Positions 5,189 through 49,476 of a stretch of 64,000 nt of DNA are shown piece after piece. The stretch lies in the NCBI GenBank assembly GCA_024613925.1, contig GCA_024613925.1_4713.1; one strand, 5' to 3'. Below the pieces are notes generated by a model. It ran no database searches and was not told where the DNA came from. It saw only the letters and a list, made by a program, of their open reading frames with translations. The position numbers were made by a program, and so were the translations under genes. This DNA comes from a phage. Within the stretch, counting starts at the first letter, position 1; every line of letters begins with the position of its first letter.

Positions 5189-6295
5189 TTAACGAATCTG
5201 TGGGACGTTTCCGGTACGGAGCGCCTGGAGGATCGTCAGAAGATCGGAACCCGAGGTTGACGAACTGTTGGATTTTTCCAGTTGCTTGAAGCTTACGGTG
5301 GTCCCTTGATCCAAGCTGTGGAAATAGAAGGTCACCATCTCTTCAGCTTCGTCGATGATGATCAACTGCATTGCGAGGGCTTCAGCCATGACTTTCTGAC
5401 GTGTGGTATAGTCAGATAAACGACGTCCGATCTTACGCTCGATGGCTTCCTGGTTAGCCTTAGAGATGATATAGGTGGAGGCGATGGCTCCAGAAGAAGG
5501 GATCTTTGTGCTCGCTGCAGCTTTTGCGGCATTGATGCGCGCAGCATTAACAGCCTTACGGATACCCTCTTTATCCATGCGTGAGATTCGTTTGTGTTCA
5601 CGAACCAGATCGCTAAGCAGGATCATATCGCTCCAGAAAGACAGCTCACCGGCCATCATGCGATGCCAACGTGCTCGCCAGGTGTTCTGTGGACCGCCGA
5701 TCGCTAAAATCGACGCAAGCACTTCCGCTGGTGAACTTGCGATACGCATGCTGATATTCAGCGGCATTTTCATCGTTGCCTGACCATCGGTCAGCGTCAC
5801 GGTTAAGAACTTCCCGGTGACCGCATTCGCATCTTTGTTCAGCAATTCGATCGCCGCGTCGCTGGCTCCAACATCGAGGCTATTTTTTTGTTTCCCCTGC
5901 AGGTTGAATCCTTTGCCGTCAAGGAAAACAAGGCTTTTGCTATCCGCACTTTCCAGCGCTAATTTAATAGCCTTATCCGTCAGGTTAGCGTTACGGTTTG
6001 GATTCACGCGACCCAGCGTTTTATCGACACTGATATTACCCACCTGCATGATGGTGTTCAACGCCAGTAAATAGAACCCGGTATACATGTTTTCAGCGGT
6101 GCGCATGCAGTTGCCTAACGCATTGCGTGCGTCGCTATAATACAACTCACGTTCAAAGATCAGCGGTGCGATAACGCGTGAAGGTTGTGAGAGTTCAACC
6201 AGCGAACCTGGCTGGATAAGTTTATTAACTTCGTAGACTTTAGCGATACCGGACGCAACAACGTTAACAGCGTCGGCAATTTCTGATGCTACCAT
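5189..6295 (-). CDS. Hypothetical structural protein (capsid-related candidate, unverified)
   Basis: 368-aa ORF with AAGGA ribosome-binding site; no diagnostic motif recognised. Confidence 0.5.
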   Translation of the reverse strand: MVASEIADAVNVVASGIAKVYEVNKLIQPGSLVELSQPSRVIAPLIFERELYYSDARNALGNCMRTAENMYTGFYLLALNTIMQVGNISVDKTLGRVNPNRNANLTDKAIKLALESADSKSLVFLDGKGFNLQGKQKNSLDVGASDAAIELLNKDANAVTGKFLTVTLTDGQATMKMPLNISMRIASSPAEVLASILAIGGPQNTWRARWHRMMAGELSFWSDMILLSDLVREHKRISRMDKEGIRKAVNAARINAAKAAASTKIPSSGAIASTYIISKANQEAIERKIGRRLSDYTTRQKVMAEALAMQLIIIDEAEEMVTFYFHSLDQGTTVSFKQLEKSNSSSTSGSDLLTILQALRTGNVPQIR

Positions 6296-6329
6296 ATTGA
6301 AATCCTTATTTACAAATAAAGGAAAGAAA

Positions 6330-7535
6330 ATGTCTAATTACTACGACCAAGCTATTCAAACCATTCAGGAGAATAATGCGTCGTTAACACCCGAAGCTGT
6401 GGAGGCAGCGGGCAATGCGGTGTTATTCACTGATTCGGATTGGGCAATAGCGCGGAAGAATATTCGTACCAGTGTCGGTCAAGGGACATACGAGGACAGT
6501 ATCGCCAGACGGTATCGGAATGTTTCACCTATTCCAGGGAACAGCCCGATTCCGATTAACCGCGATCATGCCGGTATTACCTTCTTCACACGACCTAATT
6601 TACATCTTACCGACGCGAACTTAAAACGAGATCGACGTTTGTGGTCGTTACGCACGGATAACCCTAACAGTATTCAGGCTGTTGTCCGCGACTACTTGGA
6701 CCCTGTGGGTGCCAGAAAGCGGAACCATCGAGGACGTGCCATCGTCGATGAGCGCAATCCATTCATAAGTATACTGACGGACAACCTGACGGATATCAGC
6801 GGTTTCAATGACATGGAAATGCAGGTCTATCAGGGCAAACCGGGATTACGCCAAGAAACCGTTGTGATGGCTGACGGTTCAGTGGATATGTTTCAACCCT
6901 ATAACCTGAACGCGACGTTCAAGAACATCATGGGTAACCCCATCATGTTCCTTCATTATATTTGGTTGATTTACATCGCTGGTGTGCATAATGGCGAACT
7001 GACGCCAAGCCCTCAGGCCATCATCGATAACGAAATGGATTACTGGACAAGATGTTATCGTATCATCTTGGATCCGACTGGGATGTATGTTCGTTATATC
7101 TTCGCACCGACCGCGATGTTTCCTGTCGGGTTACCGATCGGTAATATGGCTAACTACAGCATCGATAAACCCTTCACGCAGGATAACGAACGTATCACTA
7201 TCCCATACCAAGCGGTTGGTAATAACGCATTCGATGAAATTCTGAAGGATGAATTCAATCGACTTGTCTTGATGTTCTATTACGGTGAGAACGATACCCG
7301 TACGTTCCTTGAAGATGAGGAGTTGGTACCTATCTCACCCTACGAACGTCGAATCATGTCGTATCGTGTCGATATGTATCCATTTATTCATCCGTTGACC
7401 TCAGAGCTTCTTTGGTTCGTACCCGCTGATGATTACAACGAATTCTATCTGGATCTTGAGCCGTCGGCGTTACCACCGGATACGTTCAGTCGCGATCTTG
7501 TCCGAACCACCATTCCGCAAAATTACGAGGGATAA
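6330..7535 (+). CDS. Hypothetical protein
   Basis: Track ORF 6297..7535 begins with TTG; ATG at 6330 preceded by AAGGAAAGAAA is the better start. Confidence 0.6.
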   Translation: MSNYYDQAIQTIQENNASLTPEAVEAAGNAVLFTDSDWAIARKNIRTSVGQGTYEDSIARRYRNVSPIPGNSPIPINRDHAGITFFTRPNLHLTDANLKRDRRLWSLRTDNPNSIQAVVRDYLDPVGARKRNHRGRAIVDERNPFISILTDNLTDISGFNDMEMQVYQGKPGLRQETVVMADGSVDMFQPYNLNATFKNIMGNPIMFLHYIWLIYIAGVHNGELTPSPQAIIDNEMDYWTRCYRIILDPTGMYVRYIFAPTAMFPVGLPIGNMANYSIDKPFTQDNERITIPYQAVGNNAFDEILKDEFNRLVLMFYYGENDTRTFLEDEELVPISPYERRIMSYRVDMYPFIHPLTSELLWFVPADDYNEFYLDLEPSALPPDTFSRDLVRTTIPQNYEG

Positions 7536-23529: not shown

Positions 23530-23925
23530 TTACTCTTTGACGTCAGTTGTCGTTTCGACATGCTTCTCACTACTGACGTACCAGAGCAGGTACGTTGGGA
23601 AAAGATTGACCTCTAAGCTAAATGGGATATTGTATTTCTCTTCCATTTTACAGAGATGTTCTTTAAGTAAATTTCTCGCGTCTCTGTCACCACGAACAGA
23701 GTGCCAGTCTAGTTCTTTGTTCTCCTTTACCAGGACCTCTACGATGATACGTTGCTCGTGAACCTCGGTTTTCACAGTGAAAAGTAAATCGCTGCTATCA
23801 AAACGGGTAAAACGAATGTATGAGCCAGGTGTTTTTTCTTGTTTAATAATATCGATCATGGTAGAAATGCGCGGATGATCGATGTTGTCGTTAACAGCTT
23901 TAACGATGGATTCTACAATGCTCAT
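23530..23925 (-). CDS. Small hypothetical protein (array member 3)
   Basis: 131-aa ORF. Confidence 0.5.
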   Translation of the reverse strand: MSIVESIVKAVNDNIDHPRISTMIDIIKQEKTPGSYIRFTRFDSSDLLFTVKTEVHEQRIIVEVLVKENKELDWHSVRGDRDARNLLKEHLCKMEEKYNIPFSLEVNLFPTYLLWYVSSEKHVETTTDVKE

Positions 23926-24084
23926 TTTTTTTATCCTTAATGTTATCGGTTTAGAAATATTACTTAAATATTGTTTTATTTATCGATGGTTGTTACCCAT
24001 GATGGGAAAGCCGGATGGAAACAGAGCGTGAACGTAACCTTCGTATCGTATTTAATCGCTGAACTTTATCTTTGATAGACATGA

Positions 24085-25799: not shown

Positions 25800-25827
25800 A
25801 AAAAAAAAAGGTGGGGCGAACCCCACC
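25800..25827 (-). terminator. Rho-independent terminator (minus strand)
   Basis: GGTGGGG cgaa CCCCACC hairpin followed on the minus strand by a 10-nt U run; directly after the stop of 25853..26278. Confidence 0.65.
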
Positions 25828-30511: not shown

Positions 30512-30985
30512 ATGCCAGTTTCATCCAAACCAAGAAAAAAATCCGTAGGAAACCCTAAAGCTCAGGAAACAACAGCAATTCGTTGGGACGAGTTACGTGA
30601 ACCTATCGAAAACTGCGAATTGTTATTAGGTACCCTGGGTGCGGCTATTTACCAAGCGACGCAACCCTGTCGTTTACGATTAACCCAAAACAAACGTGAT
30701 GAGTTCGTTGCGTTATCAACAAGCACGAATAAAGATCTGACCGAACTTCAAACCGAGTTGACGACGATCAAGAACTCCATTACGCCGATGTACGGTAAAG
30801 AAGTTGATGAACAAAGTATTCTGTTACAGTACAACTACGGGATGTCGTTAATGAACATCCTGGAACGCGCATCCGATATTCTGCGTCCTGACGTTGCACG
30901 CCTGAGCCAACTGCGTGTCGAAGGGATGGAGAACCAGATCCGATTCGCTAACAGTGTTAAATCTCAAGGAGCCACCGAAGCATGA
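30512..30985 (+). CDS. Hypothetical protein
   Basis: 157-aa ORF; AGGAG before ATG; 4-bp overlap with next gene. Confidence 0.5.
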   Translation: MPVSSKPRKKSVGNPKAQETTAIRWDELREPIENCELLLGTLGAAIYQATQPCRLRLTQNKRDEFVALSTSTNKDLTELQTELTTIKNSITPMYGKEVDEQSILLQYNYGMSLMNILERASDILRPDVARLSQLRVEGMENQIRFANSVKSQGATEA

Positions 30986-32667
30986 GCGAACAAGAAAAAG
31001 AAGTCGTGACGAATCAGGAAGCCGTTGAGCGTTCAGAGTCGTCCGCTGAAACAACGATTCCAGCAAGTTCCGATCCTGTTGGTTCCGCACAGCAGGAAAG
31101 TAAAGACGAAGTAAACACTACTAAAGAAGATGTAGTGGCTCCAGAAGCAACCCGTGAAGAAGAACCGTCACATCCGCCGCTGGTCGATTTCTCGAAGGCG
31201 ACGATACGTTTCCAATGCGAAGACATTCGTCCTAAGAGTCCGAAGAAAACAAAACGCCAGCCGCTGGTGTTACCGCTGTATTCTCCACGTGTGCAGACAA
31301 CGTATTACCGGGAATACATCAACGAAGCAATGGATACCGTACAAGCCATTGTCGCTCAACGCGGTAAACCTACAGACGAACAGTTTGATAAATTCAGTAA
31401 AGCGGTGGTACAATCGGTTGCTGATGGACAATACCATCCGCGTGGCCCAGCTCACGATCGCGCGTTGGAACGTAAGGGCAGTCAGTGGACTAACGTACCC
31501 GTAGACTCATCGGGTGTTGGTCGCGTTATTCCTGGCATCCCGCAACCGAACCATATCCCTGATGATGTCGAAGCGCCGCTGACAGGAACCGATGCGATCT
31601 ATTTTGCCATCCGCAATACGAAATCAGGCGCACCTGCGGTAATGCCGTTATGGCATAGCGGTATTAAGCTGCAGTTCAATCCGCCATCAAATGAACGTGT
31701 TGCAATTATGCACGAACGTATTGCACGCGATAAAATCCTGGGTGGACGTGATAGCACCGGTTTCCTGTTTTCGGCAACCTCGATTATCACCATGAAGCAT
31801 GCTATCGAATTAGCGTTAGAATGCTGTTACATGGCCAACGTACCGAACCTGGATATCCAGCGTTTGAAAGACATTATTCCGGTTACCGATGTTCCGGCAT
31901 TGTTGTTGAACGTGCTGGTAACCATGTATCCGTACGGGTATCCTTACGTACAGACCTGCTATCAGAATCCAGAAACCTGCGACTATCGTGTCGAAGACAC
32001 CGTAAGCTTTGCGAAGCTCTATCAAGTTGACAACAGCGCAATTACCAAACGTATGCGACAGATCATGACCGAAGGTCCGGTCATGACCGATGAACTTTTG
32101 CGTGAGTATGCAAACGAACTGGGTGAAACGAACTCCCGCACGTTGGATCTGTCCGACAACGGTTCTGTTATCATTGAGCTTGAAGTGCCGAAGATTTCAC
32201 GACAAATCGCCATGGGTGAACGTTGGTTAAGCGATACCTTGGAAGATCTGCGTGATATTCTATCGCGTCCGTCAATGACCGAAGAAGAGCGTGATCGTGT
32301 TATTCGTGAACGTCAGTTCTATAGCTGGATGCGTCAGTATGATGCATGGATCAAATCGATGCATGTGTCAGTAAACGGTACCATGCGTCGTGTAAGCGAT
32401 GCGGATACGGCAACGGTATTAGCACAGCTGTCTCGTGACAGCGACCTTCGTGAACGCTATATCGATGGGCTGATGCAATTCATCGGTGATTCGACGATTG
32501 CGCTCGCAGCAATGCCTGCCTGGAAATGTCCGAAATGTAATGCCGATATTGCTGACAATCTGCGCGACCAGAAATACTACGATCTGATTGCTTTGGATGT
32601 ACCCCAGCTTTTTTTTACCCTAAACTCCGTCCAATCTCTTCAGGAGGGGATGGACGCGGTATTCTAA
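30982..32667 (+). CDS. Hypothetical protein (561 aa), candidate upstream partner of a -1 frameshift
   Basis: Long ORF ending 51 nt after a T8 run; the -1 frame stays open from 32556 to 33089. Confidence 0.6.
   Translation: MSEQEKEVVTNQEAVERSESSAETTIPASSDPVGSAQQESKDEVNTTKEDVVAPEATREEEPSHPPLVDFSKATIRFQCEDIRPKSPKKTKRQPLVLPLYSPRVQTTYYREYINEAMDTVQAIVAQRGKPTDEQFDKFSKAVVQSVADGQYHPRGPAHDRALERKGSQWTNVPVDSSGVGRVIPGIPQPNHIPDDVEAPLTGTDAIYFAIRNTKSGAPAVMPLWHSGIKLQFNPPSNERVAIMHERIARDKILGGRDSTGFLFSATSIITMKHAIELALECCYMANVPNLDIQRLKDIIPVTDVPALLLNVLVTMYPYGYPYVQTCYQNPETCDYRVEDTVSFAKLYQVDNSAITKRMRQIMTEGPVMTDELLREYANELGETNSRTLDLSDNGSVIIELEVPKISRQIAMGERWLSDTLEDLRDILSRPSMTEEERDRVIRERQFYSWMRQYDAWIKSMHVSVNGTMRRVSDADTATVLAQLSRDSDLRERYIDGLMQFIGDSTIALAAMPAWKCPKCNADIADNLRDQKYYDLIALDVPQLFFTLNSVQSLQEGMDAVF
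32609..32616 (+). other. T8 homopolymer, candidate -1 slippery site (U UUU UUU in the zero frame)
   Basis: Codons CTT TTT TTT in the 30982..32667 frame; a -1 slip gives ..FFYPKLRPISSGGDGRGILIDPRYGLHDGQLV.. Confidence 0.4.
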
Positions 32668-32729
32668 TCGATCCGCGATACGGGTTACATGACGGACAAC
32701 TTGTTCGTAATGATGAAAAAATCTGGGAA

Positions 32730-33089
32730 TTGCTGTTAGCGCGTAAAGGCGACGGCGGCATGAAACTGAACATCGAAATGGGTATTGCGTACGATACCAT
32801 GTTTGGTTTGTACGACCGCGTTAACGAATGGACACCGTTGAAATGGGTGGCTCAGCATCCCGCTGAAGATCCCTGGGACAGATTAGGGATTAAACCCTTA
32901 ATCGAGGATTATGTTCGATTCGGTATTAAAGAGTTCATGACGCTGGATGCGTTTTTAAAAGCACCGTATCCTTACGCGCAAACGGTACTCAAAATCGCAC
33001 AAGACGAACTGCGGAAACGTAGTGCGGTACTGGACGACGATGAGGACAAGTTACGACGAGAAGAAGAACGTTTACGAAACGGAAAATAA
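32730..33089 (+). CDS. Downstream ORF, either a frameshift extension of 30982..32667 or a separate small gene
   Basis: Track start is TTG with no convincing ribosome-binding site; frame is open upstream to 32556. Confidence 0.35.
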   Translation: MLLARKGDGGMKLNIEMGIAYDTMFGLYDRVNEWTPLKWVAQHPAEDPWDRLGIKPLIEDYVRFGIKEFMTLDAFLKAPYPYAQTVLKIAQDELRKRSAVLDDDEDKLRREEERLRNGK

Positions 33090-33090
33090 A

Positions 33091-33600
33091 ATGGCGAGAT
33101 TTACCAGTTTGATTGGGTTGGATATTTGGGAAACACCGGCTGACGTTCGGGTTATTCCTGTCAACACCGTCGGTGTGATGGGACGCGGTCTTGCCAAGCA
33201 GGCGGCCGATCGTGTACCCGGTCTTCTTGAAGCGTACCGTAAGCAATGTCAAGATGGGTTTAAGGTGGGCGAAGTCGTGTCATATCAGCATGGCGAGAAC
33301 GATCAGCTCACCTACGTGTTGTTTCCATCAAAATCGGATTGGCGCGAAAAAACACGACGTGAGTATATCGTTAATGGTTTACTGGCGTTAAAAGCGTGGT
33401 TATTGGAGCTTCAGTTCGAAAGAGACGGCTTCTCATACCACCGTCCGGCTGAACCGTTGATTGTCGCAATTCCTCCGGTTGGTTCTGGTTGCGGTAATAT
33501 CGGTTACGGACAATCCGAAACAATCCAGCCTCAATGGGTACGCGCACAAATCAAACAGTATCTTGCCACCGTGCCAAACGTTCATTTCTACTTGTTCTAA
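33091..33600 (+). CDS. Macro-domain protein (ADP-ribose binding or processing)
   Basis: VIPVNTVGVMGRGLAKQ matches the N-terminal glycine-rich macro-domain motif; start moved to ATG at 33091 (MARFTSL) one nt after the upstream stop. Confidence 0.65.
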   Translation: MARFTSLIGLDIWETPADVRVIPVNTVGVMGRGLAKQAADRVPGLLEAYRKQCQDGFKVGEVVSYQHGENDQLTYVLFPSKSDWREKTRREYIVNGLLALKAWLLELQFERDGFSYHRPAEPLIVAIPPVGSGCGNIGYGQSETIQPQWVRAQIKQYLATVPNVHFYLF

Positions 33601-49420: not shown

Positions 49421-49476
49421 TTAAAAAAAAGAAAAATAGGAAAACGGTGTTCATCCTTTTAGGGATGAACACCGTG
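49421..49476 (-). terminator. Rho-independent terminator (minus strand)
   Basis: 13-bp stem ACGGTGTTCATCC/GGGATGAACACCGT followed on the minus strand by a long U-rich run. Confidence 0.65.

Follow-up and report, generated by a model that had tools for sequence, protein, structure and literature searches.

A conserved T-run probably acts as a −1 recoding site that joins two open reading frames in core gene cg18 of nucleus-forming jumbo phages

Introduction

When two overlapping open reading frames (ORFs) meet at a run of eight thymidines, does the run mark a site of programmed recoding, the chance border of two genes, or an indel that has broken one gene in two? The question is raised by a phage DNA of 64,000 nucleotides (nt) (NCBI GenBank assembly GCA_024613925.1, contig GCA_024613925.1_4713.1), referred to here as the window, with positions counted from its first letter. 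In this window, gene 30982..32667 contains a T8 run near its 3′ end and is followed by a smaller ORF in the −1 frame. The initial annotation of the locus, made from the letters alone, had offered two readings: a −1 ribosomal or transcriptional slip that makes two C-terminal isoforms, or a sequencing or phase-variable indel that hides one gene of roughly 700 amino acids (aa). Comparison of the locus with its relatives indicates, with a probability that we put at about 0.85, that gene 30982..32667 and the small downstream ORF form one recoded gene with two isoforms.

The window derives from a Goslar-like nucleus-forming jumbo phage. Its DNA identity to Escherichia phage Goslar is 95.3% over the region, and the gene order is that of Goslar gp078–gp083. 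Goslar has both ORFs as well, annotated as gp081 (554 aa) and gp082 (109 aa). The large ORF matches phrog_4585 (E 3e-67) and the small −1 ORF, which is equivalent to Goslar gp082 and phiKZ 076.4, matches phrog_12109 (E 1e-8); Pfam returned no match for either of them. A tblastn search located the large protein in 158 phage records, with phiKZ gp77 among them.

By its sequence, gene 30982..32667 is identified as chimallivirus core gene cg18, one of the approximately 70 genes common to all nucleus-forming jumbo phages. The supplement of the core-genome study equates Goslar gp081 with phiKZ gp077, RAY gp267 and cg18, and the core-genome table labels cg18 “hypothetical protein”, treats the large ORF alone as the gene and mentions neither a frameshift nor the small ORF as a C-terminal domain (Prichard et al, 2023; 10.1101/2023.02.24.529968). 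What was known beforehand is thus cg18 as a core gene listed as hypothetical, and −1 frameshifting as a type of event. The frameshift in cg18 and the link to baseplate hub assembly considered below appear unrecognised, as we found no description of either in the literature searched.

Results

The slip site and its two reading frames

The T8 run occupies positions 32609–32616 of the plus strand (TTTTTTTT), within the zero-frame codons CAG CTT TTT TTT ACC CTA. Its last seven bases (32610–32616) read U_UUU_UUU on the codons CTT TTT TTT and constitute a canonical X_XXY_YYZ heptamer in the frame of 30982..32667, placed on a conserved Phe-Phe pair. Past the heptamer the zero frame continues through 16 sense codons (TLNSVQSLQEGMDAVF) to the stop codon at 32665–32667, and this segment (32617..32667, plus strand), conserved across genera, would be the C-terminus of the short isoform, a protein of 561 aa with 95% nucleotide identity to Goslar gp081 at the level of its gene. 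The −1 frame has a stop codon at 32553–32555 and is open from 32556 up to the stop codon at 33087–33089. Slippage after the second Phe would give ...PQLFF/YPKLRP... and append 157 residues (157 codons and the stop, 32616..33089, plus strand) as the C-terminal domain of a 702-aa form. The junction peptide of this long form reads YYDLIALDVPQLFFYPK, and the zero-frame C-terminal peptide of the short form reads YYDLIALDVPQLFFTLNSVQSLQEGMDAVF.

The earliest ATG, GTG or TTG in the −1 frame is the TTG at 32730 and the earliest ATG is at 32760. The latter is equivalent to the annotated start of Goslar gp082, which corresponds to the 3′ two-thirds of the −1 extension. On all of these points the initial annotation had read the sequence correctly, including the arrangement of the run as U UUU UUU in frame, its distance of 51 nt from the stop, the open −1 frame from 32556 through 33089 and the TTG as the first start of the downstream ORF; only the length of the added segment changes, from about 158 residues to 157.

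The T8 run is not an isolated reading of one assembly. The run is embedded in a segment, reaching from 112 nt before it to 82 nt after it, that is the same in the window and in Goslar. The same T8 is found in two further IMG/VR contigs with 96% protein identity (a third matching locus is the Goslar genome itself), in a Salmonella-associated contig with 87% protein identity and in three Logan contigs with 85%, 56% and 51% protein identity. In the two most distant Logan contigs TTTTTTTTACCCTAAACTCC is unaltered, despite proteins that are half diverged. With T8 shared by at least eight sequences that were deposited separately, sequencing error can be excluded.

Conservation of the run and of the frame relation

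We compared 30 junction loci. Six of them are the window, Goslar, three Logan assemblies and a Salmonella-associated contig, the last four being contigs that encode database relatives; the remaining 24 belong to further named phages. The named phages are phiKZ, Noxifer, Eowyn, Bacillus phage AgentSmith, Erwinia SNUABM_54, Deimos-Minion, Ralstonia RP31, Burkholderia FLC9, FLC6, Proteus phage 10, Phabio, PhiPA3, 201phi2-1, PS119XW, Vibrio sm033, pir03, BONAISHI, Yong MS32, Klebsiella FBKp24, LPKP23, Salmonella SA002, Cronobacter CR5, Serratia 2050HW and Xanthomonas LucasX. Their hosts span Pseudomonas, Erwinia, Klebsiella, Serratia, Vibrio, Ralstonia, Burkholderia, Xanthomonas, Salmonella, Cronobacter, Proteus and Bacillus, and this survey of junctions by genus drew on annotated phage records.

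Relative to the large gene, the small ORF is in the −1 frame in all 30 loci and never in the +1 or the 0 frame. In every one of them the open −1 frame also reaches back into the 3′ end of the large gene, with an overlap of 55–259 nt, and a run of T5–T8 is located on conserved Phe-Phe codons within the motif (D)xxxxFF(T)L. The arrangement persists between phages whose proteins are only ~20% identical. The run is T8 in 10 loci, T7 in 11, T6 in seven and T5 in two, and the X_XXY_YYZ register (U_UUU_UUU, _UUA, _UUG or _UUC) is present in 25 of the 30.

The base composition of these genes offers little reason to expect such a run. Outside the junction, 27 non-redundant large genes provide 44.4 kb of sequence, in which there is no other T run of six or more and only five T5 runs. 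Elsewhere in the same genes TTT makes up 33% of the Phe codons and TTC is preferred; in FLC6, the slip site carries T8 whereas TTT is used at none of the 17 other Phe codons. Because no other run of T6 or longer occurs in 44.4 kb and TTC is the preferred codon, we consider the run to be under selection rather than a compositional by-product.

Coding content of both frames

Conservation extends to the protein encoded in each frame past the run. The zero-frame tail measures 8–37 aa and follows an FFTLxS...(K)IL-like pattern that is kept even between Bacillus and Pseudomonas phages. The −1 extension measures 152–175 aa in each of the 30 loci and can be aligned from the slip site onwards, through FFYP..., a Gly-His/FG region, the motif AYxxxFGIxDH...P-L..V..HP.ED and a charged helix.

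The position of possible start codons bears directly on how this domain could be made. In 26 of the 30 loci the first ATG, GTG or TTG of the −1 frame does not come until 8–88 codons past the slip. For phiKZ and AgentSmith this earliest possible start is 85–88 codons in, within or past the AYxxxFGIxDH...P-L..V..HP.ED motif. In the window, the −1 frame contains no NTG between 32556 and 32729, and residues 1–38 of the extension (32616–32729) are conserved with relatives at 51–56% overall identity. These 38 conserved codons are beyond the reach of initiation, so that the domain cannot owe its synthesis mainly to independent translation.

If the two ORFs were the halves of a broken gene, intact versions would be expected among homologues, and the initial annotation had named single uninterrupted homologues as grounds for abandoning the frameshift. 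None was found. With the 157-aa extension as query, phmmer recovered 13 relatives, all of 107–158 aa, from 1.84 billion representative proteins, and a profile search with a trimmed 28-sequence core alignment of the large protein returned 41 relatives, all of 484–614 aa. Word-indexed searches with the fused protein and with the alignment of the family gave five close relatives only and no fused form. Proteins of 686–720 aa, from CR5 and, in BFVD, from phiEaH2, were considered as candidate fusions and rejected, since by appearance their additional length is N-terminal (checked for CR5 only).

These observations allow two of the alternatives to be weighed. That the locus is an artefact or a product of decay, whether an indel from sequencing or assembly, a tract subject to phase variation or a pseudogenising frameshift that recently struck a single ~700-aa gene, would agree with the proneness of some sequencing chemistries to errors at homopolymers and with the plausible 702-aa protein obtained by fusing the frames. 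It is at odds with the recurrence of an identical T8 across separate depositions, with the retention of the frameshifted arrangement at ~20% protein identity, with the lack of an in-frame version in two very large protein libraries and with protein-level conservation in both frames, and we reject the hidden-gene proposal as having almost no chance of being correct. The alternative of two independent genes holds that the downstream ORF is translated alone from the TTG at 32730 or the ATG at 32760, so that the overlap and the T-run are incidental. All 25 deposited records whose annotation we read do show two genes, and an ATG is indeed present at 32760, from which independent initiation could coexist with frameshifting. 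An ORF that is always in the −1 frame and always overlapping, conserved residues upstream of any NTG in the window, a first start inside or past a conserved motif in phiKZ and AgentSmith, and a T-run contrary to local codon usage together make two wholly independent genes very improbable. Three lines of comparative evidence, namely the constant frame relation with its overlap and T-run on Phe-Phe codons, −1 coding upstream of any start and a conserved zero-frame tail, strongly support the initial proposal of a programmed −1 slip with two C-terminal isoforms.

Nature of the slip

Recoding of one kind or the other, ribosomal or transcriptional, is thus highly probable on the comparative sequence evidence. 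Based on the heptamer, we infer that the event is probably ribosomal −1 slippage at U_UUU_UUU. According to this mechanism, the majority of ribosomes would pass the T8 run unshifted and terminate 16 codons further on, releasing the 561-aa protein. A fraction would move back one base on U_UUU_UUU (32610–32616), with both Phe-tRNAs re-pairing on UUU, and would then read 157 codons of the −1 frame to give the 702-aa protein that ends at 33089. The two isoforms would have 545 residues in common, and their ratio would be set by the efficiency of the slip.

The initial annotation had called for a search for a stem-loop or pseudoknot 5–9 nt downstream. In the window, two adjacent hairpins are predicted by folding of the downstream segment (32626–32654 and 32655–32677, plus strand), the first of which starts 9 nt past the run, and the 60 nt downstream of the run rank among the most stable 1% of windows of the same size in the gene. 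They could act as a local stimulator. Covariation of the hairpins within the Goslar clade is weak, amounting to one compensatory pair. In the family at large, the downstream segment of 26 loci was no more stable than background (Wilcoxon p values of 0.7–0.8). If there is a stimulator of frameshifting, it would be lineage-specific.

Several observations weigh against programmed ribosomal frameshifting in cg18. One is the result just given, that no downstream RNA structure or pseudoknot is conserved family-wide. Five loci (Noxifer, PS119XW, PhiPA3, Phabio and FLC9) have T5–T6 only, in the context G/A_UUU_UUY, which permits re-pairing of one tRNA only. The run encodes Phe-Phe in both frames, so protein constraint explains part of its conservation. 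Finally, the literature searched contained no report in which the long isoform was detected or otherwise described.

Transcriptional slippage is the main rival, and a serious one for runs of T7–T8. Here a phage or host RNA polymerase would stutter on the T8 run and add one U to some transcripts, which would produce the same two isoforms. The run is long, being T8 in the window and T7–T8 in 21 of the 30 loci, and the search for a conserved downstream RNA stimulator came back empty. Chimalliviruses moreover transcribe with their own multisubunit polymerases, which could behave differently at such runs. For bacterial RNA polymerases, efficient slippage usually takes place on longer A/T runs, typically of 8–9 or more, and a slippage-prone length is not what has been kept at this junction: the run varies from T5 to T8 across the family, relatives retain the two-frame arrangement on T5–T6 only, and the 43 cyanophage loci described below have an invariant T6 (U_UUU_UUC, 43 of 43). 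The X_XXY_YYZ register, kept in 25 of 30 loci, matters to tRNA re-pairing and not to a polymerase. Taken together, we regard transcriptional slippage as an unlikely source of the long isoform, and ribosomal slippage as the preferred one.

Predicted fold and function of the cg18 product

Searches of Pfam, PHROGs and PDB sequences returned nothing informative on the function of cg18, and its product was therefore considered at the level of predicted structure. The AlphaFold2 (AF2) model of the 561-aa protein has a pLDDT of 80 and a pTM of 0.79. The extension modelled alone is predicted with medium confidence to be helical, with a long C-terminal helix. In a Foldseek search of BFVD, the AF2 model of the large protein matched its own family first, followed by entries named “Baseplate hub assembly protein, bacteriophage T4-like” or “Baseplate protein” with E values of 1e-4 to 9e-4, a probability of 1.0 and TM scores of 0.47–0.55 on the target. 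The depositors of AgentSmith gave its cg18 orthologue the same baseplate name as those BFVD entries.

Four cysteines are invariant in an 8-genus alignment of the family. Cys326 and Cys333 are encoded at 31957–31980, and Cys516 and Cys519 form a CPKC motif (32527..32538, plus strand) located 25 residues before the slip site. Judging from this pattern, the four residues likely form a Cys4 zinc site, which suggests that the middle of the protein would be tied to the segment immediately preceding the slip site.

The baseplate proteins of reference are T4 gp26 (208 aa) and gp51 (249 aa), both of which belong to PF12322 (T4_baseplate), with matches of 9e-64 and 4e-52. A CxxC at the equivalent C-terminal position precedes FF in T4 gp26 and in gp160c of Agrobacterium phage OLIVR5. 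The C-terminus of T4 gp26 reads CPECGKTHAHVIRGLKEFFELL up to its stop codon (in longer form, ...AVPIKCPECGKTHAHVIRGLKEFFELL), OLIVR5 gp160c ends with ...KFKCIECGEDNEVVVKDLKDFFSS, and the window protein reads ...AMPAWKCPKCNADIADNLRDQKYYDLIALDVPQLFFTLNS... at the corresponding place.

A number of results speak against this relationship. Among solved structures, which include none of the gp26/gp51 family, no PDB entry resembles the AF2 model, and none of the 41 family members matches PF12322, even at E values up to 1. Profile–profile comparison by hhalign gives a probability of at most 30% with the gp26/gp51 family, limited to the CPxC region. The gene also adjoins RNA polymerase and helicase genes, not tail genes. 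On balance we lean towards cg18 being an enlarged relative of the T4 gp26/gp51 baseplate-hub assembly proteins, a homology that is probable and not established. In that case the short form would correspond to gp26, and the frameshifted form to gp51 with an extra C-terminal module. Neither gp81 nor gp82 is listed in the main text of the preprint on the structure of the Goslar virion.

Slip sites in the T4 gp26/gp51 family

T4 gp51 can be aligned to gp26 until ...DVFKLL and then continues in frame for 46 more residues; this 46-residue module is “baseplate hub assembly catalyst” in PHROGs. In OLIVR5 the end of the gp26-like “baseplate hub subunit” gene reads GAT TTT TTC TCC TCC TGA (L037:1480-2360), and the −1 frame is open across the T6 run into gp159c, a 46-aa ORF annotated “baseplate hub assembly catalyst”. 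The corresponding gene of cyanophage S-WAM1 ends with TCT TTT TTC GCG TAG (L036:2139-2366), and its −1 frame encodes FFRVALMHDSLMNYYKTNFALMQHHKYSLSELEDMMPWERDVYVNLL..., a predicted product that is by sequence plainly homologous to the gp51 module.

This organisation proved to be general among 80 related IMG/VR loci (L038-L117; 42–100% identity, 43 of them distinct). Each of the 43 distinct T4-like cyanophage loci encodes ...EGLxSFF on xxT TTT TTC, followed by one codon and the stop. Where the contig is long enough, a 64–70-aa −1 ORF homologous to the C-terminal module of gp51 is present without exception (40 of 40), and many of these ORFs are conserved upstream of their first Met. This pattern suggests that the cyanophage “gp51” would be a frameshift product. 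Neither the run nor the ORF is seen in T4 gene 26 or in its gp26-like counterpart from Aeromonas phage avDM7-IJDJ, and both of these phages carry a gp51-type gene of full length. With the run and the −1 ORF in cyanophages and OLIVR5, as against paralogues in T4 and avDM7-IJDJ, the family would thus have two ways to a short and a long form, a −1 slip at the FF codons or a pair of paralogous genes.

Comparison of the chimallivirus extension itself with the gp51 module was less clear. By hhalign, the end of the extension (MTLDAFLKAPYPYAQTVLKIAQ; MTLDAFLKAPYPYAQTVLKIAQDELRK) could be aligned to the module with P values of 0.004–0.009 in small alignments, against 0.85 for a reversed-sequence control, at a calibrated probability of only 4–8%. 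A single-sequence comparison of the extension with the C-terminus of T4 gp51 was negative. We tentatively propose, as a scenario with slightly less than an even chance, that baseplate-hub assembly genes of myoviruses were anciently recoded. One ancestral gene would have produced a gp26-like short form and a gp51-like long form by a −1 slip on the T-run for its C-terminal Phe-Phe, and this state would have been kept in cg18, in enlarged form, in T4-like cyanophages and in OLIVR5-like phages, with T4 proper having switched to two paralogues.

Neighbouring genes and other homopolymers of the window

The neighbours of gene 30982..32667 include the genes for a virion RNA polymerase beta subunit, a homologue of a head structural gene and a macro-domain gene, and in phiKZ and Noxifer a helicase gene lies close to cg18. 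The gene immediately upstream (30512..30985; Goslar gp080, at the position of phiKZ gp78) shares an ATGA overlap (30982–30985) with the start of 30982..32667, which suggests translational coupling of the two. Both genes are syntenic in all phages examined. An A7 run (30535–30541; AAG AAA AAA TCC) is located near the 5′ end of the upstream gene. Directly 3′ of the −1 extension, positions 33091–33600 encode a macro domain protein (PF01661, E 9e-6; Goslar gp083, phiKZ ORF104-like). The longest ORF of this gene, from a GTG at 33022, overlaps the end of the extension.

Only seven homopolymers of seven or more bases are present in the whole window. Apart from the slip site, runs of at least eight are represented by an intergenic A10 at 25800, an intergenic A8 at 49423 and a T8 at 23925. 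The last of these (23925–23932) is a minus-strand A8 in the spacer between an AAGGA motif that resembles a ribosome-binding site and the ATG of an ORF that falls within open frame 23530..23979, and is not coding. The A10 run is followed by GGTGGGGCGAACCCC (25800–25824), which on the minus strand forms a GC hairpin and T10; the element looks like an intrinsic terminator between two minus-strand ORFs. A T7 run at 5883–5889, A7 on the minus strand, lies within a 382-codon minus-strand open frame (5189..6337).

Discussion

Our analysis of the cg18 junction has consequences for how this gene is annotated and studied. If the two ORFs are indeed one recoded gene, all 25 annotations that we read, out of the 158 phage records with the gene, split a single gene or start its second ORF arbitrarily, and the ~160-residue domain exists only within a protein of ~700 aa. 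Knock-out, CRISPR interference (CRISPRi), transposon sequencing (Tn-seq), tagging and interaction studies of phiKZ gp77/076.4 or Goslar gp081/082 must then handle the pair as one gene. Annotations would be affected throughout the family of nucleus-forming jumbo phages and, probably, for “gp51” in T4-like cyanophages.

The link to T4 gp26/gp51 would in turn provide a testable function for cg18, namely baseplate hub assembly, and a natural case in which the same pair of proteins is made by recoding in one lineage and by gene duplication in another. Should the more tentative scenario of ancient recoding hold, cg18 would gain a function, the stoichiometry of hub assembly factors would be a ratio set by frameshifting, and the tiny “gp51” ORF of cyanophages would have no independent existence.

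Three known systems invite comparison. In 2004, Xu, Hendrix and Duda reportedly described a conserved −1 frameshift of tail assembly chaperone genes, of the lambda gpG/gpGT type. As in gpG/gpGT, cg18 has a slippery heptamer at its 3′ end, the short product would arise from the normal stop and the long one from a −1 shift into an overlapping startless ORF, and the arrangement is kept despite loss of sequence conservation and implies a fixed ratio of two isoforms. Unlike those genes, the part of cg18 upstream of the slip encodes 545 aa as compared with roughly 100–150 aa, and it lies beside a virion RNA polymerase subunit gene instead of in the interval from tail tube to tape measure gene. Searches of Pfam and PHROGs matched none of the chaperone families, and Foldseek matches named “tail assembly chaperone” had E values of 0.4–1.8 and probabilities of at most 0.23. 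We conclude that cg18 is an analogue of the tail assembly chaperone frameshift genes and not a member of their family.

In E. coli dnaX, which encodes tau and gamma, a −1 frameshift gives a shifted product that is the shorter one, and a Shine–Dalgarno-like element and a strong hairpin flank the site. The two genes resemble each other in having a homopolymeric X_XXY_YYZ heptamer within a long gene and two isoforms with a large common N-terminal part. They differ in that the shifted product of cg18 would be the longer one, cg18 lacks an upstream Shine–Dalgarno-like element and its hairpin is confined to the Goslar clade.

The gp26/gp51 proteins are the third system. The chimallivirus protein is ~2.5 times larger than these proteins, its extension measures ~160 aa against 46–70 aa, Pfam and PHROG searches gave no sequence match and profile–profile support is weak; T4 itself uses two genes and no frameshift. 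A predicted fold similar to that of BFVD members is a possible feature in common, and two Cys pairs, with a CxxC located 10–25 residues before a C-terminal (D/E)xFF, are shared. The cyanophage and OLIVR5 members would also share with cg18 a −1 slip on a T-run that encodes FF, which in their case leads into a gp51-type module.

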